A stretch of DNA of 64,000 bases, taken from IMG/VR virus record IMGVR_UViG_2891407665_000020; one strand, 5' to 3'. Shown here piece by piece: positions 7,643 through 40,400 of the stretch. The first letter of the stretch is position 1. Each line of letters opens with the position of its first letter. The position numbers were made by a program, and so were the translations under genes. The DNA is from an uncultured virus (IMG/VR IMGVR_UViG_2891407665_000020) (Duplodnaviria; Heunggongvirae; Uroviricota; Caudoviricetes). Under the pieces are notes generated by a model. That model ran no database searches, had not been told where the DNA came from, and saw nothing but the letters and a program-made list of their open reading frames with translations.

Positions 7643-7671
7643 TTGCAAATAAACATTTTGTAGTATAGAAT
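7643..7671 (+). promoter_or_regulatory. sigmaA-type promoter
   Basis: TTGCAA-17bp-TAGAAT, directly upstream of the GGAGG RBS of the DUF262 gene. Confidence 0.5.
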
Positions 7672-7684
7672 GGAGGAAAGTATT

Positions 7685-9521
7685 ATGAATAGGAGGAAAC
7701 GGACAGTGGCTGATGAATTAAATGTAAGGGGCACCTATATATTGGATACTTTCAAAGACTATTTAGAAGATGTGTACTGGGTAAATAGGCGATATCAGCG
7801 GAAATTAGTATGGACTTTGGAGGAGAAACAAAAATTCATTGATACTATTTTACACAATTATCCAGTACCGATTTTCCTTTTAGCAAAAATACAAATTAGA
7901 CGGCGAAGATAGCTATCGAAAAGAAATTATTGATGGTCTCCAGCGGTTGAATGCTATTTTTTCATTCATAAAAAATGAGTTTTCTGTTAAGTGGCAAGAT
8001 GGTAATTTTTACTATTTCAACGTTTCTGCGCTGGCGGGGGCTGAGCAAATGCTTGCAGACGGAATTCTAACCCAAGAAGAGAATAAGCTGGAACTCGGCG
8101 TTTGCAGAAAATTTCTGAACTACCAGCTACCGATAACAACGACTGAGGTAAGTGATACAGAGATAGAAGATATTTTTATCAGAATCAATTCCACTGGTAG
8201 AAAACTTTCGGCGCAGGATCTTAGGCAGGCAGGGGCAGTAGGATTGTTTTCAGACTTGGTTAGAAAAACTGCCTGCTATATCAGAGGAGATATAACTGAG
8301 AAAGATGTGGTGTCCTTATCGAAGATGCCGTCTTTAAGTCTAAGTCATAGAAAATTGAATTATGCTATAAATTTGTATGATACATTCTGGATGAAGAACA
8401 GAATTCTAACTGAAAAGAATTTAAGGCTTTCCCGGGACGAAGAGATTATTGCTCGTCTGTATAGTTATATGATTCTAGGCAATAAAGTATCTCCATCTTC
8501 TAACTCCTTAAATAAGATGTATGATAGCGACTCACGACAGAATACAGAGCTGAATACATATATTGAAAATTACGGATTACTTGAAATGATGGATAATTTC
8601 TCAAAAGTGTATTCTGACTTTAATAAAATATTCAGGAGTGTTGATTCTAACTTCTCAGCATGGTTATTCCGGGGTGAGGATGCCAAGGGAAGGGCGAAAG
8701 TGTTCCAAGCCTTATTTTTAGCATTGTACAATTTACGAAAGTCGCAATTTGATATTTCAGATTTTCGTAAAATTGCAAACGCTATTAAATATATAGGTGA
8801 TAAAGAATTTAAGGAGATAACAAATGATGAGGAGTGGAATATCGAAGTCCGCAACACAGCAATTCGAAGAATTACTAGTATCATACAGCCGTTAATGACT
8901 AAAAATATCAAGCTAGCAGAGAACAATGAGTGGAGATTAAAGCTGGAAACACTTTTGTCTGCAGCCTCCGGTGTTGAGTCACAGATGTTTGACTTTAAGT
9001 TGGGTCTAACTACTTTGCAAACTGGCCAGAGAAACAGGGAATGTGTTTCTAAAATCGTAAAAACTCTCACAGCAATGGCAAACACAAAGCCAAATGAAGA
9101 AGCTACTGTCTTGATCGGAATCGCAAATGATTTAGAGCACGCAAGGCAGTTTAGAAACTACTATGGAGCAAATTGGGTTCAGGTCGCTGAGTGCTATGTG
9201 ACAGGTATTGATGAAGAAATTCGAACGTATTGGAAAAGCAAAGAGGAATATTGTAACTTCATAAAGCGGGCAATTGAGAATGAGCCTGTACTTTCGGAAG
9301 TTTCCAGTCAGATTTTGAGAAATTTTCAGGTTATCACTTATGAGGATAAAACACTGATAATTTTAACACTAAAGAGTATTGGAAAACCACTTGCTTATGC
9401 AGAGGAGTTTTATGAACGGCATGGCAGTCATAATAGCAAAGTTGGGATAGGTACTCCAGAATTTTACGGATTATTTCAAAGATGCTCCACCGTCAATTTA
9501 GACAGTTGCAATCTGTTTTAA
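7685..9521 (+). pseudogene. DUF262 (ParB-like/GmrS) plus C-terminal Schlafen AlbA_2-like domain protein, frameshifted at about 7885-7889
   Basis: YQRKLVW...FIDTILHNYPVP; removing one A gives KYKLDGEDSYRKEIIDGLQRLNAI in frame with ORF 7947-9521; also IFIRINSTG and C-terminal ESQMFDFK...TLTAMANT...VLIGI. Confidence 0.75.
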
Positions 9522-9537
9522 TTATTAACTAGGCAGT

Positions 9538-9924
9538 GTGTCGAACATAACAAAAAGAAACGGCCTCGTACTTAGTACAATTACAGTAATCATAATGGAG
9601 ATAGGGCAGGCCATGAATGGGTTGTCTGCGAATAAGTTTCCGTTGTTTACACCGTATCAGATCACACTTATGGTGATTCGGGTGCTTGCTTATTACTCAA
9701 TCTATTATGTCGAGCAGATTAGGGGAAAATTTAGGTCAGCACTGGTTTTAGGAAATATGAATTTCGAGAAGAAAAGATTAAGCAATATTAATTTCCTGTA
9801 TCCAACCGTAGCTTCTGTTGCCGCGGTAGCTGACATTGCTGCGCTCATTAGGGATATTCAACTGGATTGGTATGTACGGCTGATTGTTGCACAGCATTGT
9901 TTGCGATTGTATTTATTTGCGTAA
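9538..9924 (+). CDS. Possible hydrophobic hypothetical protein or gene remnant
   Basis: 128-aa ORF with weak RBS. Confidence 0.3.
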   Translation: MSNITKRNGLVLSTITVIIMEIGQAMNGLSANKFPLFTPYQITLMVIRVLAYYSIYYVEQIRGKFRSALVLGNMNFEKKRLSNINFLYPTVASVAAVADIAALIRDIQLDWYVRLIVAQHCLRLYLFA

Positions 9925-10271
9925 TTGGTTATACGCAGTATGTGATACTTATCCGGCAGACAGTATGACTGGTCAGGGCAGGCTTGCAAGACAGTAGAGG
10001 GTGTCCCAAAAGTCATGAAGTGACTTGAGGGATTACCCTCTTTTTGCAAAAAAATAGAGAACGGTTACCACACCGTTCTCCATTTCTACCTCATTATGTG
10101 ATATAATAAGGTATGCTTACATTTAAAGATTATACAATGTAAATGCAGGGAAATGACTGATAATGAAGAGTACAGAAATACTGCTTGTAGAAGTAGATGA
10201 AATATTTATATAATGTTATGTAAATATGCAAAATATGATAAGCAGTAGATAGTATGGCCATTCACGAGTTT

Positions 10272-10307
10272 AAAGAGGAGTCTGTTTTGACAGGCTTCTC
10301 TTTCTTT
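10272..10307 (+). terminator. Terminator-like hairpin, similar to the one at 7578-7610
   Basis: AAAGAGGAGTCTG-TTTTGA-CAGGCTTCTCTTT. Confidence 0.5.
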
Positions 10308-10409
10308 GCGTTTAACAGTTATACACAGGCAGTTTATTGGGCACTAATGTGCGTCTTTTGCAGTATTGCATTATAATAGTAACAATGTAAAGAAGGAGGA
10401 GAAATCACA

Positions 10410-11324
10410 ATGACAGAAAGAATGGAAAAATACTTGGACTACTGTAAATATCGAAAAGAATTGGATGATAAGACTATAAAGGCATACCGAATTGATCTGC
10501 GTCAGTTTTCAGAAGCGGTCGAACGTGACACTTTAGACAGAACAGTGATTGAAGCATATATAACAGAGCTACATAAGAATTATAGGCAGAAAACCGTGAA
10601 ACGCAAAATAGCATCCATAAAGTCCTATTACAATTATTTAGAGGATGAGATGCTGATTGAAGAGAACCCATTCAGGAGGATTAAGGTTAAGTTCAAGGAA
10701 ACGGAGACTCTTCCGCGAATTATACCACGGGAGGAGATAGAGACGCTTTTAAACTGCATTTACCGGGAGCTTAATTCCAGTGTTGGCTGCGCGTACAGGT
10801 GCAGGCTTCGTGATGTGGCTGCCGTAGAATTGATGTTTGCCACAGGGGCAAGAGTATACGAGATATCCAGTATCAGAGAAGAGAGCATTAATCTAGACAG
10901 CGGTCTGATTCGATTTATGGGAAAGGGAAGAAAAGAGCGATATGTGCAGGTCAGCGACCCAGATGTTCTTTCTATACTCAGAAAATACTATGAGGAAAAT
11001 CAAGCAGCCATTAAAGAATGCGGATATTTCTTTGTAAACCGTTATGGCAATAGATTTACAGAGCAGGACATGCGGTACATGCTTAAACGGTATACAGCAT
11101 TAGCTGGAATTGAGAGGAATATTACGCCCCATATGTTCCGGCATTCATTCGCTACGTATTTAATCGAAGATGATGTAGACGTCAGCTGTGTACAGAGGAT
11201 ACTCGGGCACAGCTCTATTAACACTACGCAGATTTATATCCATGTGGCGGCAAAGAAGCAGGCCGAGATACTGAAAGAAAAGCACCCAAGGAACAAGATG
11301 AGAATAATACAGATACAGGGGTAG
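10410..11324 (+). CDS. Tyrosine recombinase (XerC/D-like), candidate invertase
   Basis: N-terminal SAM-like core-binding domain (KTIKAYRIDL); catalytic residues R (TGARVYE), K (GKGRKER), H-x-x-R (HMFRHSFAT), H (LGH), Y (TTQIY). Confidence 0.92.
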   Translation: MTERMEKYLDYCKYRKELDDKTIKAYRIDLRQFSEAVERDTLDRTVIEAYITELHKNYRQKTVKRKIASIKSYYNYLEDEMLIEENPFRRIKVKFKETETLPRIIPREEIETLLNCIYRELNSSVGCAYRCRLRDVAAVELMFATGARVYEISSIREESINLDSGLIRFMGKGRKERYVQVSDPDVLSILRKYYEENQAAIKECGYFFVNRYGNRFTEQDMRYMLKRYTALAGIERNITPHMFRHSFATYLIEDDVDVSCVQRILGHSSINTTQIYIHVAAKKQAEILKEKHPRNKMRIIQIQG

Positions 11325-11435
11325 TACGGTTTGTGGAGAGGGTGTATGCGGGGGTGTAAGCGCTATAGGATAAGACTATAGATAACTGAAAGGAAATATA
11401 AATTATGAGGAATGATTTCGAATTACAAAAATCTC

Positions 11436-11464
11436 TTGTTAAAAAATAGGATATGTGGTACAAT
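11436..11464 (+). promoter_or_regulatory. sigmaA promoter P1, outside invertible cassette 1
   Basis: TTGTTA-17bp-TACAAT with extended -10 TG. Confidence 0.65.
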
Positions 11465-11474
11465 GATGTCGTAG

Positions 11475-11545
11475 TAAAGGATAATAAGAAATTATCTTTC
11501 AGTATTTGTTAGATTGGAGAATACTTAGATGATTAATTTATATGA
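11475..11545 (+). repeat. Left arm of 71-bp perfect inverted repeat (IR1-L)
   Basis: Exact reverse complement of 14988-15058; contains GGATAA-TAAGAAA-TTATCT, the RBS and the ATG (MINLYE). Confidence 0.95.
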
Positions 11546-13970
11546 GTTTCAAAAGCGAACTCAAGAAAAAATTTGTGAGAAATTTAAAAGTGAAAATTTA
11601 ATTGTCCTATTAGGAGAAGAAGGAAGCGGAAAATCTACCATTATTAATGAATTATGTAAAAATCAAGAATTAAGCTCATATAATATTATAAAATTCACTG
11701 CTGATAAAACAAGTACAGCTGCTGAATATAATTGTATACCACAAGATAAACGACATGCTTTACTAGAGGAATCCTACAGTTTACAAATCAGTAAAGGGTT
11801 TTTAAAAGATATTGCAACAACTGTTACAAACGTTGTGGGCATTAGTTTTACAGATATGATGGAATCTTTAATGTCTTTACAAGAAATAAACGAATTAGAG
11901 CGTTTATTAAAAGTGCTAACTCACAACAAGAGTCTAGTTCATACACTCTATGTATTTGATAATATAGAATATTATGATAGTAAATCTGTGTTACTGATGA
12001 ATAATCTCATAAATTATATAATTAATAATGTTACTAATTCTAAAATGTTGCTTGCTGCAAATTCCGGAGAGAGCATCTTAGAAATGGAATTACCAGAAGT
12101 GGAATTTCTAGAAATTCTTGCCCCGACAGCACCTGAAGATTTCGAAGAATTTAAACCTATACCTGAATCAATAATTAAATGTACTCCCATTAAATATCTT
12201 ATAAAGTTTAAAAAATCTTCAAAAGACAAACAAATTAATAATTCAATCCCCGCTTTTTATAAAAATCAAATAGAAAAACTATCACATGAGTTTCCATTCA
12301 TTAAATATATTTTATATATATTAACATTATTTGATGAACCTTTAGATTTTTCTACAATAGCTATGTTATTACCAGAAATACCAGAGTATCAATTATATGA
12401 AGCAATAGTTGTTTTAAAATCAAAAGCAATCATCGAATCAACTTATCAAGGTAAAGAAGAAAACTATTGGCTTCTGCCATTTATAAAAAAATCTCTAACT
12501 GTATGTATTCCTGAATATGTTTTTCAGTATCGGTATTCTATTCTAAGTAAGCAAATGGAATGCGTGGAAACGTTTAATTATGTATTTAAATATACAATGT
12601 ATTTAAAAGTTGAGAATTATGAAAATGCTTATGGAAGCGCTATTTCAGCGTATTGCGCTAATGCAAGAGGTGAGACAAGATTTACAGGTACTGAACTAGG
12701 AAAATTAAATATATTTTTGCGCGATTCTCCTTACTTAGATTGTTTTTCTGTATTAGTAAATTGCTATAAACTATATAACCAAAATCAATATGATAAATGC
12801 TATGAGTGTGTTTCAAAATTTCATAGAGATAATAGTATATGGAGAAATGATGAATTTCAGCTAGCTTCATATACACCGGAATTCCTAATGGAATCTATAT
12901 TACTTCGGGAATGTTGTGTTGGAAGGATTTATGAGCATGATCAAACAGTAATTTGTGAAGAGTTAGGCTTATTAGATGCAATAATCAAGGTTTCGAAGAT
13001 TTTTAAAAATACATATCTATGGTTAAGATTAGAAGAGAAAAAGTTATTGCTAAGCTCCTATATCAGTCAACCCTCTCACAAAAAACAAAAAGAGTTAATA
13101 AATCATTTTTATAAATTATGTAACGCTTATCAAGCGCAAATTCGCGCTAGTTCTTGCAAATCTTTGAAGCAATGGACAACTCATTATGCAGCTCTTTTAA
13201 TGAAAGTCAATTTTATCCCTAATGTTGTAAACAAGGGATTTATATTAAATAAAGGATATTCTATTTTTGAAAAGAGCAAGGAATATAATGGAAAAAATTA
13301 TTTAAGAGCAGCGTGCAATTATGCCTGCGATTTGATGTGGCGAAATGGATTTGATAAAGCTAAAAAAATTTTAGAATCTGCAATTAACTATATAAAAGCT
13401 CATCAAATTGAAGAGTATTGGGGTATTATATTTCAGATGAAAATATTTGCTCAGCTATATGATGTGCATCCTGTTGAACCAATAATCCTGCTGAAAGAAT
13501 ATAGAAATGTTGTATGGAAGAACGTAAGCATACGAGAAAAAATGCATGAACCTTATATATGTAAATCGAATTATGCCATTTTATTGGCGGCAGCGGGACA
13601 GATAAGGAAAGCGCTTTTATTTCTAAAGGATATTGTAGATGAAAAAAAAGAAAATAGTTATAGTATATATGACAAATACTTGTTATATACCAATCTTGCC
13701 GCGCTTGAATTTTTAAACGGAAATTCCGTAAATGCAATAAAAATAGAAAGTGAGTGTAGTGATTGGATTGATCAAATTCCTATCTTTTCCTCCCCATTAT
13801 TGCAAAAGAGGCATGAACTTGTTTTGCATATCTATCACAATGAAAGTAAAGACTATATCAATGATGTAATAAAGGTATTGGTACCAACATCTACATTGTC
13901 CAGCGGATACTGCTCAGATAACTATAATAGATTAATGCTATTTTCGGATATCAACTATTGGGCTGACTAG
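11529..13970 (+). CDS. Large P-loop NTPase (STAND/AAA-like) with helical, TPR-like C-terminus
   Basis: Walker A GEEGSGKS, Walker B-like LYVFDNIE, long helical C-terminal region; AT-rich. Confidence 0.7.
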   Translation: MINLYEFQKRTQEKICEKFKSENLIVLLGEEGSGKSTIINELCKNQELSSYNIIKFTADKTSTAAEYNCIPQDKRHALLEESYSLQISKGFLKDIATTVTNVVGISFTDMMESLMSLQEINELERLLKVLTHNKSLVHTLYVFDNIEYYDSKSVLLMNNLINYIINNVTNSKMLLAANSGESILEMELPEVEFLEILAPTAPEDFEEFKPIPESIIKCTPIKYLIKFKKSSKDKQINNSIPAFYKNQIEKLSHEFPFIKYILYILTLFDEPLDFSTIAMLLPEIPEYQLYEAIVVLKSKAIIESTYQGKEENYWLLPFIKKSLTVCIPEYVFQYRYSILSKQMECVETFNYVFKYTMYLKVENYENAYGSAISAYCANARGETRFTGTELGKLNIFLRDSPYLDCFSVLVNCYKLYNQNQYDKCYECVSKFHRDNSIWRNDEFQLASYTPEFLMESILLRECCVGRIYEHDQTVICEELGLLDAIIKVSKIFKNTYLWLRLEEKKLLLSSYISQPSHKKQKELINHFYKLCNAYQAQIRASSCKSLKQWTTHYAALLMKVNFIPNVVNKGFILNKGYSIFEKSKEYNGKNYLRAACNYACDLMWRNGFDKAKKILESAINYIKAHQIEEYWGIIFQMKIFAQLYDVHPVEPIILLKEYRNVVWKNVSIREKMHEPYICKSNYAILLAAAGQIRKALLFLKDIVDEKKENSYSIYDKYLLYTNLAALEFLNGNSVNAIKIESECSDWIDQIPIFSSPLLQKRHELVLHIYHNESKDYINDVIKVLVPTSTLSSGYCSDNYNRLMLFSDINYWAD

Positions 13971-15004
13971 TAAATATCACAATTTAACAGTGATGAACCT
14001 ATTATTGCTTTGAACATGCTAGTATTGTCATTAAAAAGATATTTGAAAGACTGCCAACAGGTTCCGGTACTTGCCAAAACCGGAAGCGCTGCAATATCAA
14101 AAATAAAGAAATCATTAGAATTTTTTATCCTGTAGTCTATGCGTGTTAAACACTCAGCATTCAAAAAACGCATAACACTTTTTGAATGTTCTAATAGCTC
14201 GGGAATAAGATTATTATACGGAAAATCCTCATTTGGTAGAATTTTAAATCTGTATTTAAAATCATCAACAGCATCATACGTTAATATATCGCCTTCAAAA
14301 TCTACGCATACTGGAGGCATTGCTATGTAATCATCTTGACCCTTTATAACAGGAACAGATACTTCATATCCATCAATATATTCTTGAATAATAATATCTT
14401 CCTTGTATTTTTTTCGCATCATAGAAGCTTTCTCTAGTATTAAAAATTGATCATTTTTTACTTTTGTCACTCCCAATGCTGCACATTCAAGGGAAGGCTT
14501 TAATATTACATATTCTGATAAAATTTCGTTTACCGGAGTCGATTGACCGGCATACACTATTGTGTTTGCAACATGGCTAAATTGACTTAATGTCAAGAAG
14601 TAGTGTGCTTTATTAAGTAGAAGTCCAGATAAGTAAGCGTCACAAGCAAGATTGTACATTTTATATCGATGACATAGAGATGGTATATAAGAACGTCTTT
14701 CTACACCAGTGCCGATTTGCACTGTACTATATAACAAATGCTTAATGCTAGTGTTTTTAAACCTTCCATCTCTAAGGTCTTTTTCAAATTCCGTATAATC
14801 TGTATAAGCAGTATAAATTAAAGATGAAAGTAAAAATCCTTGCTCTATATCTTTAATTTCAGCTGGAAAAATCATTCCCGTAGCTGCTTCGCACTGATAA
14901 GGGTTATCAAACAGAGTGATAACATGTAATGTTTGCTTTGATTTATTCGCTATATCAATTAATTCTTGAACTTGTCTTCTTATGTTTTCATATAAATTAA
15001 TCAT
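13967..15004 (-). CDS. ATP-grasp protein (D-Ala-D-Ala ligase-like fold)
   Basis: ILKPSLECAALGV, IIIQEYIDGYEVSVPV, TRIDYRI, FIFDIAALP. Confidence 0.75.
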   Translation of the reverse strand: MINLYENIRRQVQELIDIANKSKQTLHVITLFDNPYQCEAATGMIFPAEIKDIEQGFLLSSLIYTAYTDYTEFEKDLRDGRFKNTSIKHLLYSTVQIGTGVERRSYIPSLCHRYKMYNLACDAYLSGLLLNKAHYFLTLSQFSHVANTIVYAGQSTPVNEILSEYVILKPSLECAALGVTKVKNDQFLILEKASMMRKKYKEDIIIQEYIDGYEVSVPVIKGQDDYIAMPPVCVDFEGDILTYDAVDDFKYRFKILPNEDFPYNNLIPELLEHSKSVMRFLNAECLTRIDYRIKNSNDFFIFDIAALPVLASTGTCWQSFKYLFNDNTSMFKAIIGSSLLNCDIY

Positions 15005-15058
15005 CTAAGTATTCTCCAATCTAACAAATACTGAAAGATAATTTCTTATTATCCTTTA
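14988..15058 (-). repeat. Right arm of 71-bp inverted repeat (IR1-R)
   Basis: Exact reverse complement of 11475-11545. Confidence 0.95.
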
Positions 15059-15500
15059 TTAAATAGGATTGAATAGTAAACGAAGTGGCAGTTCTATCGC
15101 AAGTACCGAAAATTAGAGCACATTTTCCCATCAAAAGCCCCTTATAATGACTGCCTGGAAACGCAAGCATCTACTTGTGTAAGGAAACCTGAGCAGATTA
15201 GACTGATTATGAAATGCCGCTAGAACAGACTCTCTAATTATCAATAATGCCCGCAATGAGACATTTATCCCGGGACCTTTTACAACTGAGTCAGTAAACT
15301 TCAAAAATTCGGTTATACCATTTCAGATTCGGAAAATAACTGCAAATGTTACTTACTGTTTAAATAGAAGATGCTGTTGCTGTGAAAATGGTTGTATATA
15401 AAAATAGATAATTTCAACAAAATAATAGTTATTGTAGCATTATATTAAATAGAGGTTGCTAATCTGAAAATAAAAGATGATTAAAAAATAAAAATCAATA

Positions 15501-15529
15501 TTGCCAACAAGCAGAATCTGTTGTATAAT
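15501..15529 (+). promoter_or_regulatory. sigmaA promoter P2, outside invertible cassette 2
   Basis: TTGCCA-17bp-TATAAT. Confidence 0.7.
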
Positions 15530-15537
15530 ATTGTCGA

Positions 15538-15566
15538 AGTAAAGGATAATTCGGAGTTATCCGTTG
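15538..15566 (+). repeat. Left arm of 29-bp perfect inverted repeat (IR2-L)
   Basis: AGTAAAGGATAATTCGGAGTTATCCGTTG, the reverse complement of 20293-20321. Confidence 0.92.
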
Positions 15567-15678
15567 GATATCGTGATTGGAATAAAATAAGAGATTATCC
15601 GTTGTAAATGATTGTACACTGCCTATCAACAAAATTCGGATTACACTTTGGGCATTTTATAATCTGCATGGGGGCAAG

Positions 15679-18600
15679 ATGAAAAAATTACGTTTAGAGT
15701 ATTGGGATTATTTTACAAAAAAGGGTAAGGGTGGAAAAACAAGGGGAGATGGAATAAAGTTTGAAGGATTGGTTAAATGTTTGTTGGCAGCTCAATATGG
15801 AATAGAGTGGATCGGTACTCAAAAAAGCTACGATGATAATAGGGATTTTTGGATTTATTTCAAGGAAAAACATCTCTGGGCAGAGTGTAAAAACTATAAA
15901 GATTCAATTGCTATGGATGTTTTGGCACCGACTTTAGTAATGGCTCATATATACGAAGTAAATGAAATTTTATTTTTCAGTCGTTCAAACATTAACCCAA
16001 ATGCTAAAAATAAAATTTTAGCATTTGGTGAAAAAAGCAATAAGACAATTTTATTTTTCGATGGTGTAAATTTAGAAAAACTACTATGGGATTACCAGAA
16101 TTGTATACCTAAAGAATACTCCCCATCGGATTTTTGGGAAGACGCGCAGCCAGATTCATTTGCAGAGCCTTTTGTGCACCTATACTTCTTTAAGAATGCT
16201 GTTTCCAATGTAAATGCTATAGCAGAGTCCTTTATAAGTTACACAAGCGCAGATACAATATACTATAATGAAACATTTGCATTGACCTTTTTCTTAACAA
16301 ATAATCTTTCGGAAGATGATGTTGAAATTGGAATTGAATTTATGGATGACGGGAACGACCGGTTTTCATTTCAATATTTTAACCCGACCATTGTCCCTGA
16401 AAAGTGCCAATGGTATCAAGCATCTTTAAAAAGAGGAGAAGGAAGAGCGATTTCGCTGAATATGCGTCAAGTACGATATAAAGCTCAGATTTGTTTACCA
16501 AAGTTTCACGTTTGGATTTCATCTGCTAAAAGTGATTTTTTTGCTGAGTGGAATTCAGCGGTCAAATCTGTAAAATGTAGTTGGGTAGGAAAAACGCAGC
16601 TTATTGGTTCAAACTATTTAGGCATTCTTGAAATAACAGAGGAGCAGCTTATCGGCAATCCTAACCTATCTAGTTTGATTCTCACCGGAAGTAGTGGAAC
16701 AGGGAAAACCCGTCTTTTAAGTGAATGTCGAAATGTTTTTTTGAAAAAAGGCTATTGTATTCTTGATTTTTCAGGACAGAAAGATTTTTCTTCTCGATAT
16801 TTCTTAAAAGAAATTGTTTCTTTCCTGTATGAAATTCCCAGTGATATGGTGTTGGAACTGCTTGAACAGCGCTTATTTACTGATTATTCCGAGGAAAGTT
16901 TTCCGAAAAATACGGAAGCAGAAAAGGCAGTTCGTCTTCTGGCTTTAATTATGAAAAGCTGTACAGAGGATTCCCTGCAAAACATGTTGAGTTCATACGG
17001 CAGCATATTATATAAAAAGTTGTCGCAGAATAAAAATGTGCTGGTTATAGATAATTTGCAGTATACCGGAAGCGCGTTCCGATACTTTATAGAACAATAT
17101 ATTTACTATGCAATTAATCAGCAATCTGTAAACCATTCTGTTCTGCTACTTGCTTTCAATATTGATTACATGACAACTGCCACTTCAGAAATGCTTTATA
17201 ATCTTCTGCATTCGGATATTCCACGCTTACTTTCGTATCAATTGACGGGTTTTTGCAAAAAAGAGCAGGGTATTGCATTTCTACAGGAATTGACTCGAAC
17301 AAAGAAGGATGAGAATATAGATTTCTTCTCTGAGATTATTATTAAAGTTTCTCTTAATCCATACAACCTGTTTCAGACAGTGAAATATCTGGAAGAGACA
17401 GATATTGTCCAGATTACACCAGAAAAAAACGGATATATTGCTCCTGGCCTAGAAAAATATAGGGTACTCTCTAATATTGATATTACAGATGTATTAGAAA
17501 AAAGATTTCAATTTATCAGTATTCAGATTCCGATGGAAAAGCTCTTATTTATTTGTTCAGTCATATATGTATTTGATTTTGTCGATTCCAAACTGCAGAG
17601 TATATTTCAAATTTCAACTGAAGAGTTGGATTGTCTCTGTAAAAAACACATTTTGCAGTTATCGCAACAAGGCATCTATCTTTTCGATCATGACGTTATT
17701 CGTAAATTTTTTTGTACAAAATATGCAGACAGTGTTCTTAACTGTTTAGAATGGATTCATAGGCAGAAAAGCATAGAAAAAATTCGTCGATATCGGATGG
17801 CTTGTTCTGTCTACGAGGTTGCAATTGAAAAAAACAAAGAAACAATTTTGCGCTTTTGCCGCAATCTTCCCACGCTATGTATACCCGAGAGGCTCGCCTC
17901 GCTGTTTTATAACCATTTGTTAGATGCATTTACGGAACTGATAGAAGATGGCAATTATGAAGGAATGTATTTAAAATATATTCATCAGATATGCATATAT
18001 GTGCGGCAATATGATGGCTCCCAAAAAGCATGGTTAGTAACAAAGCAAATGTTTGACACTATTCAAGCATACTGCCCCGACGCATTGTCAAAGGACACGG
18101 CATACTACCGCCCATTGATACATTTTTCCTGTGATATTGCTATTCAATTATATTTCTATGAGGAAGCAGTTCTTTTTATAAATGACGTTTTAAATGCTTG
18201 TAAAAATGCATGCCCAAACAATGTGGAAAATAGTGATGAATTATATGTTTTACAGGCAATTATGTACAATCGCTGGTATATTACATATAATACGCAAAGT
18301 TACAAAGAAGAAATTCAAGAATTACGCCGCTCTTTAATGGATAAATCACGGGCTTATATTGACAAAATCGTTGATACGGAAAAGAAAGGGCTTATAGAAT
18401 ATCTTAACTTTTCTGATGAAGGTTATAACTATTATGGTTATCTAAAAAACAAGAAAAAACTATTAAATATATGGGACAATTGTATCAAGGATATTCCCAA
18501 TATGGTTCCTGAAAAAACATTGAATTATTACAGAAAAACAGTTCAATATGCATTGATTCATCAAGATAAAAACGCTGTCAAAGACGAAACGCGAAAGGCA

Positions 18601-19089
18601 ATGCAGTATCTAGAAGAAGGCAAATATTCACATGAACCGATTATTTTTAAAACGTTTTTCCTTATGGCGGAAATAATGTCTAATCTTCAGCATTCGCCGG
18701 AAAGGACATACTTCTATAATGCTCGGCTTATTGATAATATTTTACAAACACAATTGCTTCTAAATAATCACAAGATAGGAGATATTCTCCTTTTAAAAGG
18801 CGTAAATGCATATTATGCCGGAAATATGGATGAAGTTTATTATTCGTTTAAAGAAGCTTATGAGCACTATTCAAACGGTGAAACTTCTCGTTACTGGATA
18901 AAAGAATCTTTATTAAAAGAAAACGTAAATTACACATTTACGGTTCTCGGAATTTATAACAAAGGGTATAATGTCTCCTGTTTCCCTGATACATGGCGCA
19001 AGCCACTAATGCTTTCTAATCGAAATAAGTTTGAAGCAAGCGGTATTCAGCGTACGGGGGATTTATGCCTGAATCTGCCATTAATATGA
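15679..19089 (+). CDS. Mrr-like PD-(D/E)xK endonuclease fused to a P-loop NTPase and helical C-terminus (Avs/STAND-like defence candidate)
   Basis: GIKFEGLV...DDNRDF...WAECKNY nuclease motif; Walker A GSSGTGKT; Walker B VLVIDNLQ; LFDHDVIR. Confidence 0.75.
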   Translation: MKKLRLEYWDYFTKKGKGGKTRGDGIKFEGLVKCLLAAQYGIEWIGTQKSYDDNRDFWIYFKEKHLWAECKNYKDSIAMDVLAPTLVMAHIYEVNEILFFSRSNINPNAKNKILAFGEKSNKTILFFDGVNLEKLLWDYQNCIPKEYSPSDFWEDAQPDSFAEPFVHLYFFKNAVSNVNAIAESFISYTSADTIYYNETFALTFFLTNNLSEDDVEIGIEFMDDGNDRFSFQYFNPTIVPEKCQWYQASLKRGEGRAISLNMRQVRYKAQICLPKFHVWISSAKSDFFAEWNSAVKSVKCSWVGKTQLIGSNYLGILEITEEQLIGNPNLSSLILTGSSGTGKTRLLSECRNVFLKKGYCILDFSGQKDFSSRYFLKEIVSFLYEIPSDMVLELLEQRLFTDYSEESFPKNTEAEKAVRLLALIMKSCTEDSLQNMLSSYGSILYKKLSQNKNVLVIDNLQYTGSAFRYFIEQYIYYAINQQSVNHSVLLLAFNIDYMTTATSEMLYNLLHSDIPRLLSYQLTGFCKKEQGIAFLQELTRTKKDENIDFFSEIIIKVSLNPYNLFQTVKYLEETDIVQITPEKNGYIAPGLEKYRVLSNIDITDVLEKRFQFISIQIPMEKLLFICSVIYVFDFVDSKLQSIFQISTEELDCLCKKHILQLSQQGIYLFDHDVIRKFFCTKYADSVLNCLEWIHRQKSIEKIRRYRMACSVYEVAIEKNKETILRFCRNLPTLCIPERLASLFYNHLLDAFTELIEDGNYEGMYLKYIHQICIYVRQYDGSQKAWLVTKQMFDTIQAYCPDALSKDTAYYRPLIHFSCDIAIQLYFYEEAVLFINDVLNACKNACPNNVENSDELYVLQAIMYNRWYITYNTQSYKEEIQELRRSLMDKSRAYIDKIVDTEKKGLIEYLNFSDEGYNYYGYLKNKKKLLNIWDNCIKDIPNMVPEKTLNYYRKTVQYALIHQDKNAVKDETRKAMQYLEEGKYSHEPIIFKTFFLMAEIMSNLQHSPERTYFYNARLIDNILQTQLLLNNHKIGDILLLKGVNAYYAGNMDEVYYSFKEAYEHYSNGETSRYWIKESLLKENVNYTFTVLGIYNKGYNVSCFPDTWRKPLMLSNRNKFEASGIQRTGDLCLNLPLI

Positions 19090-19091
19090 AA

Positions 19092-20210
19092 TCAGCATTT
19101 CCGGTCTGCAATGATAGAAAGCGGTAAAATATTCCCATGGCGGTCTACAACGATATCATCTTGAATATTGCGCATACGAAACCAGAGCTCATTGTCAAAA
19201 AGTCCTACAAAGGTATCGACAAAATAAAGAATCGGCGTTACCAAATCAATGAACTCAAATGATGAATCATTGTATAATACAATATGTTCATTGTCCCGAA
19301 TGGCATTCGGACGTTCTATAATGTCAAGGAATTGAATACCTAAGCATTTTTCTATCATTTGATAAAAGGACTTTCTGTCATAAAGAGTTGTAAGGTCTAA
19401 CATAAGATATTGGTGCACATTTAGTGGATACATTTTAAGGAAATAGTCTGCGCTGATTTTATACCATGCACTATTATCATACACTATTTTTGCATAATCC
19501 TTCATACCATACATTCCTTTTGCATCCAGCCTATAATAGCTGAAACGGGATTTAGAGTTATTTGGATCGGTTCCTCCTTTATGATATGCAGTTGCTCCTG
19601 CAGATACCCATGTTTCGTAACCGATGTCACGTAAACGAAAACAATAGTCACAATCTGTATAAGAATAAGGAATGTCTTCATCCATTCCGCCAATGCGATT
19701 ATATAAAGTCTTGGTAGTCATCATTATAGCGCTACATACCGTCTGCACACAGCGGTCATCTGCTGCTAACGGATGGTTGTATAATAATCCCATCATAGTA
19801 TGCGCTGCATTGAATTTTGAATACATAATTCCAAAATCTAGGATTCGATTATTAAGCGGATTTATCAATTTTGCGCCTGCAACTCCAATTTTATCCGAGC
19901 TCAAAAATGTTTTTAGAAGTGCTTCGTACCAGCCATCCCATACAAAAATGTCTGCGTCTACAAAAGTAATAATTTCTCCGGCACACATTTCTACGCTAAG
20001 ATTTAATGCTTTAGGATATTGAATATTTTGGTACACCTTATAGTAATTACACCGTGGATTTGAGATTTCCATATCTAAATCGCTGCTGTTAACATTATTG
20101 CCAATAATAAAAATCTCCACATCATCAGGAACCGTTTTTAAAATCCTGTTCAAGCAAAATATGAGCATATCCTTATTTTTATGATATGTAATTATAATTG
20201 ATTGTCGCAT
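19092..20210 (-). CDS. Glycosyltransferase family 2 protein
   Basis: SIIITYH..., ITFVDAD (DxD), IGGMDED...YTDCDYCFRL. Confidence 0.85.
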   Translation of the reverse strand: MRQSIIITYHKNKDMLIFCLNRILKTVPDDVEIFIIGNNVNSSDLDMEISNPRCNYYKVYQNIQYPKALNLSVEMCAGEIITFVDADIFVWDGWYEALLKTFLSSDKIGVAGAKLINPLNNRILDFGIMYSKFNAAHTMMGLLYNHPLAADDRCVQTVCSAIMMTTKTLYNRIGGMDEDIPYSYTDCDYCFRLRDIGYETWVSAGATAYHKGGTDPNNSKSRFSYYRLDAKGMYGMKDYAKIVYDNSAWYKISADYFLKMYPLNVHQYLMLDLTTLYDRKSFYQMIEKCLGIQFLDIIERPNAIRDNEHIVLYNDSSFEFIDLVTPILYFVDTFVGLFDNELWFRMRNIQDDIVVDRHGNILPLSIIADRKC

Positions 20211-20292
20211 AAGACCTCGCTTTTCTTAATCATTTAATAAATAATCTAGTATTATCTCTTGTTAGCTGTAGCATCTGTATCTAACACATTTA

Positions 20293-20321
20293 CAACGGAT
20301 AACTCCGAATTATCCTTTACT
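20293..20321 (-). repeat. Right arm of 29-bp inverted repeat (IR2-R)
   Basis: CAACGGATAACTCCGAATTATCCTTTACT. Confidence 0.92.
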
Positions 20322-20330
20322 AATTCCCTC

Positions 20331-20358
20331 TTGCGCTATCTTACCAGTCTGTTATAAT
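20331..20358 (+). promoter_or_regulatory. sigmaA-type promoter for the 20449 gene
   Basis: TTGCGC-16bp-TATAAT with extended -10 TG. Confidence 0.5.
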
Positions 20359-20448
20359 AGTATTGAAAAATTACTTAAAACGTTTTTACGTGCCACAGGG
20401 GTTTATACATAAGTAATAAAACAATAATAAGACGAGGAGTGATACGTT

Positions 20449-21906
20449 ATGAAGAAAATGAAAAGATTTATGACTGTAGTCATGATAGCCATCGCGATTA
20501 TGCTGGTTCTTCCATTTAGGGCAGAGGCAGCTCCTAAATTAAGTAAGAAAAAGATTACTCTGACTGTAAAGAAGAGCGCTACTCTCAGTGTGAAAGGGAG
20601 CAACAAGAAAAAAGTACAGTGGAAGACTTCCCACAAGAAAGTGGTTCAGATTAAAAAGACGAAAAAGCAGACGAGTGTAAAACTCGTAGCAAAGAAAAAA
20701 GGAACAGCTAAGATTACCGCTACTGTAGGAAAGAAGAAACTTACCTGTAAGGTGACTGTGAAAGCGAAGAAGTCTGTGAAACCGTCGGAGACTCCGGCTA
20801 CTCCTAGCAAGCCTTCTGATAATCCTGTAAAACCAAGTCAGCCGAGTAATCCGAATACTCCTAATAAACCATCGACCGGTGGTACAGGGACTGGAATTAA
20901 GGACATTGTTATCGGCAATGGTACTCTTGATTACCCAGGGAAAGATAATAAATACTACCTTGGATACACTGCAACAACAGAGGAAGCAAAAGAGTACTAC
21001 ATGAATGGTGTTGCGTTAACTGGAGACGGAAAACCGACGGGATTGATTACTGGTATGTATGGCAAGGAATTGCACAATGGCGATACTTTTTTTATTTACA
21101 AATCTTCGCGGGATGATTACGATGACCCTGCTTATTATCGCAGAGGAGAAATAATGTTTCCTGAGGGTATATCTGTTGAACAAATTTCTTGGGAAATTAC
21201 GAATAATAAGACTGCTGATGGTGATGGTCATGAATCTGTGCTCTGTATACTAGTCTATGAAGATTATGATGGTTATCCAGCAGTACAATGCTTTGGTTTA
21301 CGTGAAGGGACAGCTGATCTTACTGTGAGTGCAAAGAATGATGCTGGCAATGTTCTCTACTCTGTAACAGTGCATGTAGATAATCGGTATGTCGATCTAG
21401 AGTACCAAAAGTACTATGGCTGGCTTGAAGAGATGGTGAATACCCCTGTTGGCACGACTAAGTATGTTACTATTAATGATGAGAATATTCGTGTAGACGG
21501 CGCTCAGGGAGCTGATGATGTCGAGACACTGATGAATGTTGGCGCATGGATTGCTGACCATAAGATTCATACGGGCACCGGTCCTATGGGGGATGACCCT
21601 GCACATTTCTATAGAGACAGCTGTAAAGGTGGCGACTGTGGTGACCTCAACCAGGTTATTGCGGATGCAGCGACTGTGCTGGGACACACGGGATGGGAGA
21701 CGCTGGTGCTGGGTATGGGCGGAAAGATCGGGCATATAGTTACGAAGGCTGTTGTTGGTGATGTTGTTTGTAGATTTGACGCGGGTGTATCCGGTACCAA
21801 ATTACCGAGGAGCTTTGTAGGATTTGTAATTGATAAGAGCGGTAATCAAATTGCCACTTATTTCAATACTGGGTACGGTGGATGCACCAAGAGGATAGAT
21901 TCATAA
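20449..21906 (+). CDS. Secreted protein: Ig-like (Big_2) domain, Pro-rich linker, transglutaminase-like C-terminus
   Basis: Signal peptide ending AEA; Lys-rich Ig domain (KKKGTAKITATVG); PSKP linker; GDC...GHI...FDAG Cys-His-Asp candidates. Confidence 0.65.
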   Translation: MKKMKRFMTVVMIAIAIMLVLPFRAEAAPKLSKKKITLTVKKSATLSVKGSNKKKVQWKTSHKKVVQIKKTKKQTSVKLVAKKKGTAKITATVGKKKLTCKVTVKAKKSVKPSETPATPSKPSDNPVKPSQPSNPNTPNKPSTGGTGTGIKDIVIGNGTLDYPGKDNKYYLGYTATTEEAKEYYMNGVALTGDGKPTGLITGMYGKELHNGDTFFIYKSSRDDYDDPAYYRRGEIMFPEGISVEQISWEITNNKTADGDGHESVLCILVYEDYDGYPAVQCFGLREGTADLTVSAKNDAGNVLYSVTVHVDNRYVDLEYQKYYGWLEEMVNTPVGTTKYVTINDENIRVDGAQGADDVETLMNVGAWIADHKIHTGTGPMGDDPAHFYRDSCKGGDCGDLNQVIADAATVLGHTGWETLVLGMGGKIGHIVTKAVVGDVVCRFDAGVSGTKLPRSFVGFVIDKSGNQIATYFNTGYGGCTKRIDS

Positions 21907-22243: not shown

Positions 22244-25200
22244 GTGTATATGTTTAAGTTATTTAAGAGTATGGCCGCTATGTCCCTTGCGGCGGTGATA
22301 GCCGTCGCTTCCTGTATTGTCCATGTGAGCGCGTCCGCACCTGCTATAGCCATTGATTCTGTTGATGGAGACACGGAGTTTGGGACGGAGACAGAAGAGC
22401 GCGCGGAGCAGGGAACGGTCATTATTACCGCTGGGGATGGCGGGAGTGTAAGTGTGAAAGGTGAAGATGGCTCTACGCTTGTGAAGGCAGGCAGTGGTTC
22501 ATCTGAGAGTGTGAAAGCAGCAGTTGGAAGCAGCATCAAGGTCATAGCTTTAGCGGATAAGGGGTACACAGTTGGGAGTTTCAGGAGAAGTGTATCCGGT
22601 CAAGGGGCTATGGATAGCCAGAATGGTGCGGGGCTTTCCAGGATGCGGAAAGAGTTTAGTGTTGTGAAGGGTACGCAGTTTATTGAAGTTTCTTTCAAGG
22701 AGAAGGCTGAGTCTGAGACTGAGGAGAGTCTCAGTAGCGAGGCCGAGACTGCTACTGAGACTATTGACCGGGAGATTACTCCCGCGGAGGAGGAGACTAT
22801 TCCCGAGGAGACTGTCAGAGAGACTATCCAAGAGACTATCAAGGAGTCTCTCGAGGAAACTGCTTCCGAAGAGACCCTCAAGGAGACGGAACCGGCTGCT
22901 ATCCCGGAGACGAATATTAGTGATATTTCACCGGAGGATGCCCGGGAAGCCGTTACAGATGTAGTGGCTGAGACTTACTTAAAGGAGAATGTAAGCGGGA
23001 AGTTTGTACCGAGTATTGACAAGATGGAACTCGCTTCCGGGATGGTAGTGAAGCAGACACTTGCTGACAGGGCGGTTACTGGAGATAATGCTACTATTGA
23101 AAGTGTAATGCTGAGCACTGATAAGGTCGAGAAATTGATTACACAGTTTGACTTTGCGGTTGCCCTTTATGACCTTTCGGACAGCAGCGATTATTATGTA
23201 GGGTATGCAAATACAATGCTGTACGATGCAGGGGCTAGTGTAAGCGACTGGGCGTTTGCAGAGAATAATAACAGCGGTGTGGGTCTGGATGGGTGTGTTT
23301 ATGACAGGAGCACTGGTATTGCATACGTGCCGAAGAAGCTTACTATGAGGGAGGATGGCGCTGTCCTTGTTGGGTATGTGCAGCTGCAGCTCCTTCAGCT
23401 TATGGATTATGAGAGCGGGGAGAATGTAGAATCGATGGCTGTCTCTAACAGCACGGTGGAGGATGAAAATTCCGTTTGCAGTGAAGCAGATGGGATTTTT
23501 GACTTTACCACAACGGTACAGGTGTGCGAGGGTTTAGACACGGACACGATGGAAATAGCTGTCAATGGAGTGCCTATCAGTGAAGAAGAATACTGCTATG
23601 ACAGTGAGAGCGGGGAGCTGGATATTTTGCGTTCCTCGGCGTCAGTCGGTACTGTTTCCATCCAGGCAGAAGAGGAAACTTTCTTTACAAAGATAAAGAA
23701 GTTCTTTAGCCCCTTTAAGGTAGCGGCAGCAAAACCATCGACCGCAGCATCCAGTACAGGCTCTGCTGTTGTTGAACTGGCTGATGGGGTGGGGGTTGGT
23801 TCCGTTATGCAAGGGACTTCTGATATTTTCTATTCTCCTACTGGCGGTGGTGCAGGTCTGGGAGACTCGTACCTGTTGGAGAGCGCGCCGACAGAAGCAG
23901 GTCTATTAGCGCTGGCAAACCGCATTATTAGCGGTACAGATGGACTGACTAGGGATACTGAACTATACAAAGCGAACGATGGGCTTGAGTTCTTCTGGGT
24001 TTTCCTTAGCTCGATTGAATTGAGCGGGGCTAATGAGGATAAACTGTCTTTTAGTAAATTGCCGGAAGATACGAGGGTAGCCTTGAAGTGTGCGCATGTA
24101 GGAACTACTCTTGTTGCAGGTTCCGGGACGATGATTCATGATTACAGCCGTATGCCTGAGGGAAGTAACCTCCCAGCCGGCGGCGACTATCGCAGGGATG
24201 CAGGAATTGCTGTCCGGGTTTTGTATGTCAATCGTGAGGGTTCTGAGCCTTATGCATTGCTCGGTGTTGTAACGACTAAGATGAACGACCAGACTGGCGT
24301 AGGCCTGGTGAAAGTCCGTATAGCTGAAGGAATGGGCAAGCTGAAGATTAAAAAAGTATCTGATAACTCAGCGAAGGTTGAGAAGTACGGCGCTAATGCA
24401 TACGACCGTTCTGCAGTATACGGTGTTTATGAGACGAAGGAGGCGGCAGAGGCCAGGGATAAGGAAAAGCGTGTTACTATCCTGCGCACAAAGCCCGACG
24501 GTTTTAGTAATAAGGTAGCCCTGGAGCCTGGCAATTACTGGCTGCGTGAGATAAGGACTTCCGGCCAGGGATTTTTTGTGAGTGACGAAATAAAAAAGGT
24601 AGTAATCAGAGAGGGGCAGACAACTACACTGTTTGATTCGGCCGGTCAGTGCAAGGAGCCTACTTGTGTCCCGATTCGGGTTCATAAGTCCATTTCGAAT
24701 CCTGAGCTTATTCCCGGTGGTGTTGATTACAGTCGGGCAGTGTACGGCTTGTATTGGGACGCCGCGTGTACGGATGCTGTAGGTATGGGGGCTGACGGTA
24801 AGAATCCTGTTACGTTTACTCTGAAAGAGGATGGGTACAGCAACTGGGTATGGCTGAGCGAGTCCAAGGATGTACAGAAGCGCAGGCCCGGCGGATACGG
24901 AACTTATTATGTGAAGGAGATTTCCGCCCCGCCTGGGCTTGCTCTGGACGCCACAGTGCATGAGTTTAATATGGGCAAGGACACTCTGGATCTGACTATT
25001 GAGAGCCAAGAACCTATTCAGAGTCTGCCTGGGCTGAACGTCACAATTAAGAAAAAGGTGACGGAGGCTCGCTCAAAGACTGGTAAGAACACCAAGGGGT
25101 GTATTTTCAAAGTCGAGTATTTCGCAAATTATGCGTGTGCAGGGACTCCTGCAAGGGTGTGGTATTTTGCGAGTAAGGCTCCCAGCGTGCCTGATCGTAA

Positions 25201-36524: not shown

Positions 36525-37385
36525 ATGCGTTATCGAATGCCAAGAGTAGCAGCTACGGGTGTTGTGGTGTGTATTGGCGCCGCTAGTTTCCTTGATTCTG
36601 GGGATACGTGTAGCTTGCTGCAGAATAAATTTAATGTTTATGCTGATAAAGCTTCTGTGGCAGAGCAGACGGTGGACCGTTTTGTAAAGGACGTAGCGAT
36701 ACGCGACATGCGGATTGAAGCAGAACTGCAGGGAATCAGGGAGCAAAAGAAAAAGGAGCAGGATTCAGCGGAGAGCAAGGAAAGGAAGCTTAAGGAGATA
36801 AGGAAGAAGCAGAGGAAAGCTTTAGACTCCAACGGTTACTATAAAAAGTATAAACAGAAGAAAAAGGCAAATGCCGATACTGTGGGATGGCTTAGCATCA
36901 GCAATACGAGTATTGATTACCCTGTTATGTATGCAGAAAACGACTTCTATCTAAACCATAATTCTGATAAAGAAGAGGACAGTAATGGCGCCATCTACCT
37001 TAGCGGCAATCAGGGTAACTGGGGCAAGGTCAATTTAGTGAACGGGCATAATATGAAATCAGGCAAGATGTTTGGACCGCTGGATAAGTTTAAGGATGAG
37101 GATTATTGTACGGCTCACAGGGATGTTGTGCTTGCGCGCAAAGGCGAGGTAGGGCTGTATAGGGTATTCTCAGTTTTCCTGGCAGATGCGCGGAACGAGC
37201 CAGTATCTTTTAGCGAAGAAAAGGAAGGACAGAAGTACCAGGATTTTTTAAGGACTCTTAGCAACCGGTCGCTCTTTAACCTTGATTATGATGCTGAGGC
37301 TGATGATATTATTATTTTGAACACATGCTCTTATGAGTATTCGGAAGCGCACCTGCTAGTCTGCGCTTATAAATTAAGTGAATAG
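36525..37385 (+). CDS. srtB: Class B sortase
   Basis: GWLSISNTSIDYPVM, NDFYLNH, GHNMKSGKMFG, LNTC catalytic motif. Confidence 0.85.
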   Translation: MRYRMPRVAATGVVVCIGAASFLDSGDTCSLLQNKFNVYADKASVAEQTVDRFVKDVAIRDMRIEAELQGIREQKKKEQDSAESKERKLKEIRKKQRKALDSNGYYKKYKQKKKANADTVGWLSISNTSIDYPVMYAENDFYLNHNSDKEEDSNGAIYLSGNQGNWGKVNLVNGHNMKSGKMFGPLDKFKDEDYCTAHRDVVLARKGEVGLYRVFSVFLADARNEPVSFSEEKEGQKYQDFLRTLSNRSLFNLDYDAEADDIIILNTCSYEYSEAHLLVCAYKLSE

Positions 37386-40165: not shown

Positions 40166-40400
40166 TGATCTGGCTAGTGTATTTCAGAACACCACCCAGC
40201 AGAAGCCTGATGAGCAGTTAATACTGCTATGCCGTGTAGGTAAGATGTATGAACTTCCAATCGAGAAAGTAGCAGCTGCCTATAAGTGGATGCTTCTTCA
40301 TGGGGATTATGGGGAGGATTACAGGTTACTGCGAAGTGGCATGTCAGACCTCTATGGCGCTGATTTTATAGAGAGGATGGAGGAGAAATATGGGAAGTGA
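40152..40400 (+). CDS. Small hypothetical protein upstream of the RNA polymerase gene
   Basis: MQKFDDLASVF..., AGGGG RBS, overlaps the RNAP start. Confidence 0.55.
   Translation: MQKFDDLASVFQNTTQQKPDEQLILLCRVGKMYELPIEKVAAAYKWMLLHGDYGEDYRLLRSGMSDLYGADFIERMEEKYGK

Follow-up and report, generated by a model that had tools for sequence, protein, structure and literature searches.

Based on the sequence of an uncultured virus and on contigs from four sequencing runs, we conclude that two tandem gene cassettes beside a XerD-like tyrosine recombinase probably act as separately coded inversion switches. The cassettes lie in the first 64 kb (hereafter the window) of the 145,781-bp record IMGVR_UViG_2891407665_000020, which is classed as a provirus. 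Cassette 2 inverts, with the crossover inside the 29-bp repeat holding its recombination site. The adjacent recombinase likely flips both cassettes, and a mismatch at four of the seven spacer positions likely blocks recombination between them, a combined reading that we hold with fair confidence.

Recombination sites and inversion in sequencing runs

The original prediction had placed GGATAA-TAAGAAA-TTATCT at both ends of cassette 1 (3.6 kb) and GGATAA-TTCGGAG-TTATCC at both ends of cassette 2 (4.8 kb). A motif scan confirmed all four sites (1L, 1R, 2L and 2R; Table 1), the last of them ending at 20315 rather than 20317. GGATAA-N7-TTATCY has exactly these four matches in the window, compared to a mean of 0.01 and a maximum of 1 in 100 shuffles, and a looser scan of the full record added only three poor matches to these four, near 80.1, 120.9 and 133.9 kb. 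In both cassettes the sites are inverted and the 7-bp spacers are identical between the ends; the sites have the build of a tyrosine recombinase inversion system, with dyad arms around an asymmetric spacer of 6–8 bp. Cognate sites are exactly identical over 71 bp in cassette 1 and 29 bp in cassette 2; non-cognate sites have 11–14 identical bases, namely the outer arm and the first spacer base. The arms had been described as the same in both cassettes. This is true of the outer arm and of the 5-bp cores, but a single base separates the inner hexamers, and past the hexamer the inner arms diverge as well. TAAGAAA and TTCGGAG mismatch at four of seven positions in direct alignment (positions 2, 3, 5 and 7) and at five of seven in inverted alignment.

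Four runs from four studies (X2, X7, X10, X12) were examined as contigs; X2 is possibly the sample from which the record came. Depth was 5–30, contigs drop rare variants, and joints and breaks were read from 32 of 95 contig pieces. Simulated 31-letter word graphs were used to predict the contig breaks for each arrangement. Both inverted cassette 2 joints are present in X7 (15566/20292 and 15567/20293, with 29 letters in common). In the simulation, the reference orientation alone produces zero breaks at cassette 2, while mixed orientations produce ends at 15566, 15538, 20321 and 20293, which are the contig ends in X2 and X10, and a single inverted junction produces ends at 15537 and 20292, which are the contig ends in X12. 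Both orientations, the hallmark of inversion by a tyrosine recombinase, are therefore on record for cassette 2, as they are for the related loci L005 and L197. All four simulated cross-cassette products would add breaks, e.g., at 11485, 11501, 15066 and 20338. Cross-cassette deletions had been proposed as a check on the original prediction; no cross-cassette joint or break was found in any of the four runs among the pieces listed. A joint in X12 from 11041 to 15543 was considered as a deletion and rejected, since one side has 27 letters, letters of unknown identity intervene and it does not start at a site; such a joint is typical of a contig from another organism. The region is also present in RNA runs X15 and X16 (presence only).

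The site family of the recombinase clade

The recombinase has thousands of relatives; at E 1e-80, 64 of the 401 family genomes sampled contain one. Of 227 loci, the 223 with a recombinase match of at least 40% identity were analysed and the other 4 left out, and these 223 were grouped into 181 clusters at 95% nucleotide identity. Among the 181 representative loci, GATAA-N7-TTATC occurs 234 times, compared to 5–15 times for each other spacing from 3 to 12 nt, and only four times in 78 control loci of distant phage integrases. A site lies no more than 400 nt from the recombinase in 129 of the 181 loci. This distribution supports GATAA-N7-TTATC sites as the putative family-wide target of the neighbouring recombinase clade.

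Two or more sites are found in 73 loci, giving 116 site pairs. Of these, 64 are inverted with identical spacers and none is direct with identical spacers; the remaining 52 are non-identical and include some chance sites. The 64 cassettes, two of them from the window, use 44 spacers of the form Y-N5-R, and 58 enclose purely convergent genes. An inward promoter-like site (score of at least 10) lies outside exactly one end in 26 cassettes and outside both ends in none (controls, 6/128 each). The interiors of L005 and L197 are 99.96% identical in opposite orientation, the ends of L197 having only the 17-bp core and the spacer in common, and L222 and L215, with interiors 99.8% identical, differ by an inversion at the sites. 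In many cassettes, identity continues for only 0–2 bp past core and spacer.

Nested inner sites are enriched at cassette ends (17/128, compared to 9/2160 control windows). They lie 34–64 nt apart and have their own spacers (L034:10896-10946, L222:8379-8431, L251:13764-13844, L339:9864-9924, window 15581-15600), and may be a record of successive cassette captures or accessory sites. The relic inside 2L was considered as a former near-match to the cassette 1 spacer, but this is ambiguous, as the intact inner site of L339 has another spacer and the relic can also be parsed as a deletion. Contigs often end within about 250 nt of the recombinase, in many cases precisely at a site. This points to active flipping or to repeats that disrupt assembly, and may conceal the family from surveys. 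The largest segment seen between matched inverted sites measures 15.5 kb and includes homologues of cassette 2 (L326:3376-18934, Sellimonas catena). SOS control of the recombinase was also considered and rejected: a LexA-like motif occurs upstream in 1 of 163 loci, compared to 1 of 141 controls.

Spacer insulation and alternative explanations

Strand exchange by tyrosine recombinases normally requires spacer identity. In the first three spacer bases at either end, the two window spacers have only one match, and thus a cross-reaction is predicted to stall. On this analysis, spacer-based insulation between the cassettes is likely. The recombinase would bind two arms of roughly 11 bp, each with GATAA at its end, that flank a 7-bp Y-N5-R overlap, as co-occurrence across the family suggests. 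Recombination between the inverted sites of one cassette would turn its convergent genes around, as was seen for cassette 2 and two pairs of relatives and presumably holds for cassette 1. Depending on orientation, a fixed promoter outside the left end could then read the NTPase gene or the enzyme gene. Each cassette would thus switch between two states, which could give the locus four in all. Given the general homology requirement, a non-cognate synapse could form but strand exchange probably could not finish, which would avoid the deletions 1L x 2L and 1R x 2R as well as the cross-inversions 1R x 2L and 1L x 2R.

The claim that one enzyme flips each cassette independently without cross-deletion is thus favoured by the clade-wide sites, the inversion of cassette 2, the lack of cross-joints among the pieces listed and the lack of direct pairs with a shared spacer (0/116). 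However, the barrier may lie in the inner arms rather than in the spacer, and the difference between the spacers may not have been selected. Co-located pairs of distinct spacers differ at 2–4 positions in 20 of 20 cases. Two further loci have two spacers each, one of them either side of one recombinase (G005) and the other about 6 kb apart with two mismatches (G167); in both, the partner sites are on separate contigs and appear to be linked. Between cassettes of different loci, a spacer is shared in only 29 of 2015 comparisons (1.4%), i.e., random pairs differ in 98.6%. Unlike spacers are thus to be expected of any two loci, and the data do not demonstrate selection for orthogonality. Nor is selection for divergent spacers apparent from the mismatch counts: between loci, 0–1 mismatch occurs in only 6% overall and 16% in the close clade. 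The simplest origin of the difference would be that the cassettes were drawn, each together with its spacer, from a highly diverse pool. In that case, insulation would be a precondition for the persistence of a two-cassette locus, not a demonstrated product of diversifying selection.

Several observations weigh against insulated switching of both cassettes. Because the 71-bp repeat exceeds the 31-letter assembly word, the breaks at cassette 1 are identical whether it is flipped or not, and its inversion is invisible in these contigs. Two motif scans of viral contigs yielded no match to an inverted cassette 1, a search of 61 related genomes for a cassette 1 copy gave only G003, with a different cassette, and an ATP-grasp query for other copies returned one irrelevant locus. 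Cross-products below assembly thresholds would be missed at the depth and in the pieces given above. At a score of 10, 38 of the 64 cassettes are without a promoter-like site. The lack of pairs with 0–1 mismatch within loci is not significant when compared to all loci (expected 1.2, P 0.28) and is borderline compared to the close clade (expected 3.2, P 0.03), the pairs being non-independent and in part from outside that clade. Among close relatives that have their flanks in common, spacers differ by one base (L001 compared to cassette 2, L269/L270, L206/L207, L219/L222), changed at both ends together, and at 1L, L001 and the window have a common outer flank followed by spacers with three differing bases. 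Spacers therefore do get replaced over time. Further, the cassettes differ in their inner arms too, which may contribute to the barrier along with the spacer.

Two alternatives fare best, although both are improbable. In the first, the same enzyme serves both cassettes, partners are chosen by the inner arms, nested accessory sites or topology, and the spacer is a mere passenger. The differing inner arms and the enrichment of nested sites at cassette ends would fit this. Nevertheless, it is the spacer that the ends have in common family-wide, with little or no identity beyond core and spacer in many cassettes; L005 and L197 are inverted at minimal sites; and the inner arms of 2L and 2R part four bases past the hexamer, yet these two sites recombine.

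In the second, to which we give no greater credence, the barrier is leaky by design: mismatched recombination at a low rate captures, nests and exchanges cassettes, and deleted products are rare or lost. Same flanks with different cargo and a breakpoint at the site (L028/L238/L284, L247/L249, L269/L270 and window/L001), close relatives whose spacers vary by one base at both ends, nested pairs that combine unlike spacers and an apparently empty single site in L253 point in this direction. However, these changes are on an evolutionary scale and could be produced by homologous recombination in shared flanks, the mismatches of the window spacers are spread over four positions towards both ends of the overlap, and no cross-product was seen in the four runs.

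It is very unlikely that only cassette 2 is active, cassette 1 being frozen or turned by host homologous recombination over its 71-bp repeat, with nothing left to insulate. The length of the repeat and the same orientation of the homologous cassette in L212 would agree with this, as would the lack of an observed cassette 1 inversion, albeit in contigs blind to it. On the other hand, the sites of cassette 1 match each other in the spacer, are perfect in their cores and lie 159 nt from the recombinase, while the two cassette genes start within the repeat with a common leader and identical first six residues. Least probable of all is an action of host XerC/XerD, instead of the adjacent gene, as at plasmid dif modules: the site arms do end in an ATAA/TTAT dyad typical of Xer sites, but the spacer has 7 bp compared to the central hexanucleotide given for dif in the passages compared, and the sites track the adjacent recombinase clade and not distant integrases.

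Cassette cargo and comparison with known systems

The locus is a low-GC island (0.29–0.37, compared to mostly 0.42–0.52; Table 1). Its recombinase has the complete catalytic set by alignment conservation (R148, K172, H241, R244, H267, Y276), which places it in the lambda integrase family, and carries an N-terminal SAM-like domain; the closest solved relative is XerD (1a0p, E 5e-35). The gene ends about 155–159 nt before site 1L. Over the 145.8-kb record, PF00589 matches only this gene, the one tyrosine recombinase found, and a PF00239 search for serine resolvases gave no match. A 99%-identical recombinase occurs in a Lachnospiraceae genome.

Table 1. Coordinates of genes, predicted promoters, repeats and recombination sites in the window.
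Feature	Position	Strand	Description
XerD-like tyrosine recombinase	10410-11324	+	304 aa; Pfam PF00589/PF02899
Promoter P1, predicted sigma-70-type, extended -10	11436-11464	+	Outside cassette 1, facing in; consensus match only, 9/12 + TG
71-bp exact inverted repeat, left copy	11475-11545	+	Contains site 1L, shared ribosome-binding site and start codon
Site 1L	11479-11497	+	Spacer TAAGAAA at 11485-11491; right hexamer TTATCT
Cassette 1 gene A	11529-13970	+	813-aa P-loop/STAND-like NTPase; predicted repeat-like C-terminal part
Cassette 1 gene B	13967-15004	-	345-aa ATP-grasp ligase, PF07478 E 3e-12; convergent with gene A
Site 1R	15036-15054	-	Spacer TAAGAAA read on minus strand; right hexamer TTATCT; repeat 14988-15058
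Promoter P2, predicted sigma-70-type	15501-15529	+	Outside cassette 2, facing in; 11/12, consensus match only
29-bp exact inverted repeat, left copy	15538-15566	+	Contains site 2L
Site 2L	15544-15562	+	Spacer TTCGGAG at 15550-15556; right hexamer TTATCC
Broken inner (nested) site	15581-15600	+	L339 cassette (91% identical) has it intact, with a separate spacer
Cassette 2 gene A	15679-19089	+	1136-aa Mrr-like nuclease domain + AAA_16/STAND-like NTPase; PF04471 E 1e-4, PF13191 E 1e-5
Cassette 2 gene B	19092-20210	-	372-aa family 2 (GT2) glycosyltransferase, PF00535 E 2e-10; convergent with gene A
Possible degenerate inner site	20240-20256	-	One arm mismatch; inside right end of cassette 2
Site 2R	20297-20315	-	Spacer TTCGGAG read on minus strand; right hexamer TTATCC; repeat 20293-20321

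In this assembly, the NTPase genes of both cassettes (gene A) face their promoters, of which P2 is the highest-scoring promoter-like match in the region. Gene A of cassette 1 has weak nSTAND6/nSTAND3 matches under the Pfam cut-off, and look-alikes in the Atlas with AAA_22/AAA_16/TPR. Gene B of the same cassette was considered as a D-Ala-D-Ala ligase or Van ligase, and rejected with scores far under the cut-offs. No NCBIfam match was found for gene A of cassette 2 and no PADLOC match for any of the four cargo proteins; “defence-like” is therefore a label inferred from their domains. No Rfam family was found within 9500-21000, and the 440 bp between the cassettes (15059-15500) had no match among the fetched loci or in the rest of the record. 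Upstream of the recombinase, a gene with a GmrSD-like N-terminal part and Schlafen AlbA_2 (7670-9521) has a weak PADLOC match to NsnA, its 5′ end apparently lying in two reading frames. Elsewhere in the window are a fused RNA polymerase beta-beta-prime gene (40390-48648), a family A DNA polymerase (52726-56751), an NAD-dependent ligase domain (37378-38622) and a 2407-aa TQ-repeat surface protein (22244-29467).

Among 60 relative cassettes (L086 and L215 were excluded as near-duplicates), 23 carry ATP-grasp, 12 glycosyltransferase and 8 pentapeptide-repeat genes. A SIR2+STALD gene stands opposite a TIR gene in five of the 60, a Thoeris-like pair convergent within the cassettes of L058, L196, L197, L207 and L218; the L058 cargo matches PADLOC ThsA1 (E 4e-98). 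Since the two genes are convergent in invertible cassettes, a single promoter outside would transcribe just one gene of the pair. The two orientations of such a Thoeris-like cassette are displayed by L005 and L197.

The gene content indicates that cargo is modular and interchangeable, as judged from sequence. In L001, which represents the same element and whose recombinase is 99% identical, one different cassette (NTPase/ATP-grasp, 11059-14598), with a third spacer that is the same at both ends, replaces window positions 11479-20315 between the outermost flanks. The left flank is about 98% and the right about 87% identical, suggesting that the window is a mosaic. Cassette 2 recurs in L339 at 91% identity with another spacer. 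In L253, a single site after the recombinase joins directly to sequence flanking the far end of the L261 cassette, apparently an empty allele, which is beyond the reach of simple recombination between inverted sites.

A broader reading, which we regard as rather doubtful, is that of a widespread and so far undescribed class of plug-in immune switches, in which an Xer-like recombinase family with dozens of natural orthogonal 7-bp spacers would carry two-component defence split between strands behind a single promoter, the flip being the trigger. A signal- or modification-making enzyme would oppose a gated effector, including Thoeris ThsB opposite ThsA, in the same tentative scheme. If true, both components would coexist only just after inversion, and the codes would let switches stack and swap without mutual deletion, with four states at this locus. 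Should expression data confirm the predicted alternate expression, two-part defence-like cargo would represent a new mode of regulating bacterial immunity. Apart from this, the 44 natural spacers on one arm type are possible ready-made orthogonal sites for genetic engineering.

The literature was searched for the site family and for convergent invertible Thoeris pairs and no description was found, subscription journals being mostly outside the coverage. The main text of Jin 2025 is without the motif, which its supplement of Firmicutes inverton motifs may contain, and that of Milman 2023 is without TIR, SIR2 or Thoeris. Thoeris ThsA/ThsB and STAND (Avs-like) systems are similar in cargo only: the window has nuclease-NTPase and NTPase-repeat layouts and its cargo matches no known anti-phage system by the PADLOC models, and the Thoeris-like relatives differ in having their components on opposite strands inside an invertible segment. 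The cassettes are not invertible promoters of the fimS/Bacteroides type, as the best promoter-like sites are outside and whole genes inside. They do not form an integron or shufflon array either, given the absence of direct identical pairs, the different spacers of co-located cassettes and the lack of an Rfam family. The recombinase, at 236 bits, is below the NCBIfam cut-offs for XerC/XerD (329.6 and 335.15) and 6-nt spacing is not enriched; by these features the system is not XerC/XerD-dif or pdif.

The next four systems are looser precedents, compared here from passages of the sources. Acinetobacter pdif modules likewise place numerous Xer-type sites, conserved in the arms and variable in the centre, around mobile genes, but use host XerC/XerD, carry resistance modules and form co-integrates, and are not a dedicated expression switch (PMC5790767). 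In the pneumococcal cod locus, the tyrosine recombinase PsrA inverts at three different repeat pairs; it differs in nested intragenic hsdS shuffling with an IR1-like sequence in all pairs, and no spacer code is described in those passages (PMC7096588). XerC UU222 serves the mba and UU172 loci of Ureaplasma (PMC3047005, PMC3599477), and MYPE2900 the mpl promoters of Mycoplasma penetrans (as cited in PMC3047005). In these, one Xer-like enzyme likewise acts on two or more invertible loci whose repeats are identical in part and whose opposed genes are expressed alternately. However, they are surface-antigen loci in which the promoter moves along with the 5′ part of the gene or chimeric genes arise, and no spacer analysis was met in the passages. 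Orthogonal LoxPsym variants reportedly form a heterospecific lox set. Lox variants resemble the window sites in having dyad arms around an asymmetric spacer, but are engineered, with 13-bp arms and an 8-bp spacer, whereas the window sites are natural and their insulation is predicted. For Cre, matched non-wild-type lox spacers mostly recombine (84% of 6000; PMC11260471).

The closest parallel is RecV of Clostridioides difficile, whose six switches have been proposed, as a model, to follow a “spacer code” that prevents mispairing (PMC12282940). In both systems one tyrosine recombinase goes with several invertible segments, with conserved arms and a switch-specific spacer that is the same at both ends. 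This pattern is found for the spacers of the window and also in G005 and G167. RecV, in contrast, uses arms of about 13 bp with another sequence and a 6-bp spacer and has no N-terminal domain (PMC12282940); the window recombinase, with another arm motif, a 7-bp spacer and its SAM-like domain, is thus not a member of the RecV family. Further, the RecV flagellar switch is a small regulatory segment, whereas the window has large tandem cassettes of whole convergent genes, a two-domain enzyme beside its targets, interchangeable cargo and outside promoters. The spacer-code principle, already proposed for C. difficile, likely extends here to a large family of defence-like switches. As the window puts the enzyme, two codes and all four mispairings within 10 kb, with one inversion visible, the spacer-code model is directly testable at this locus.

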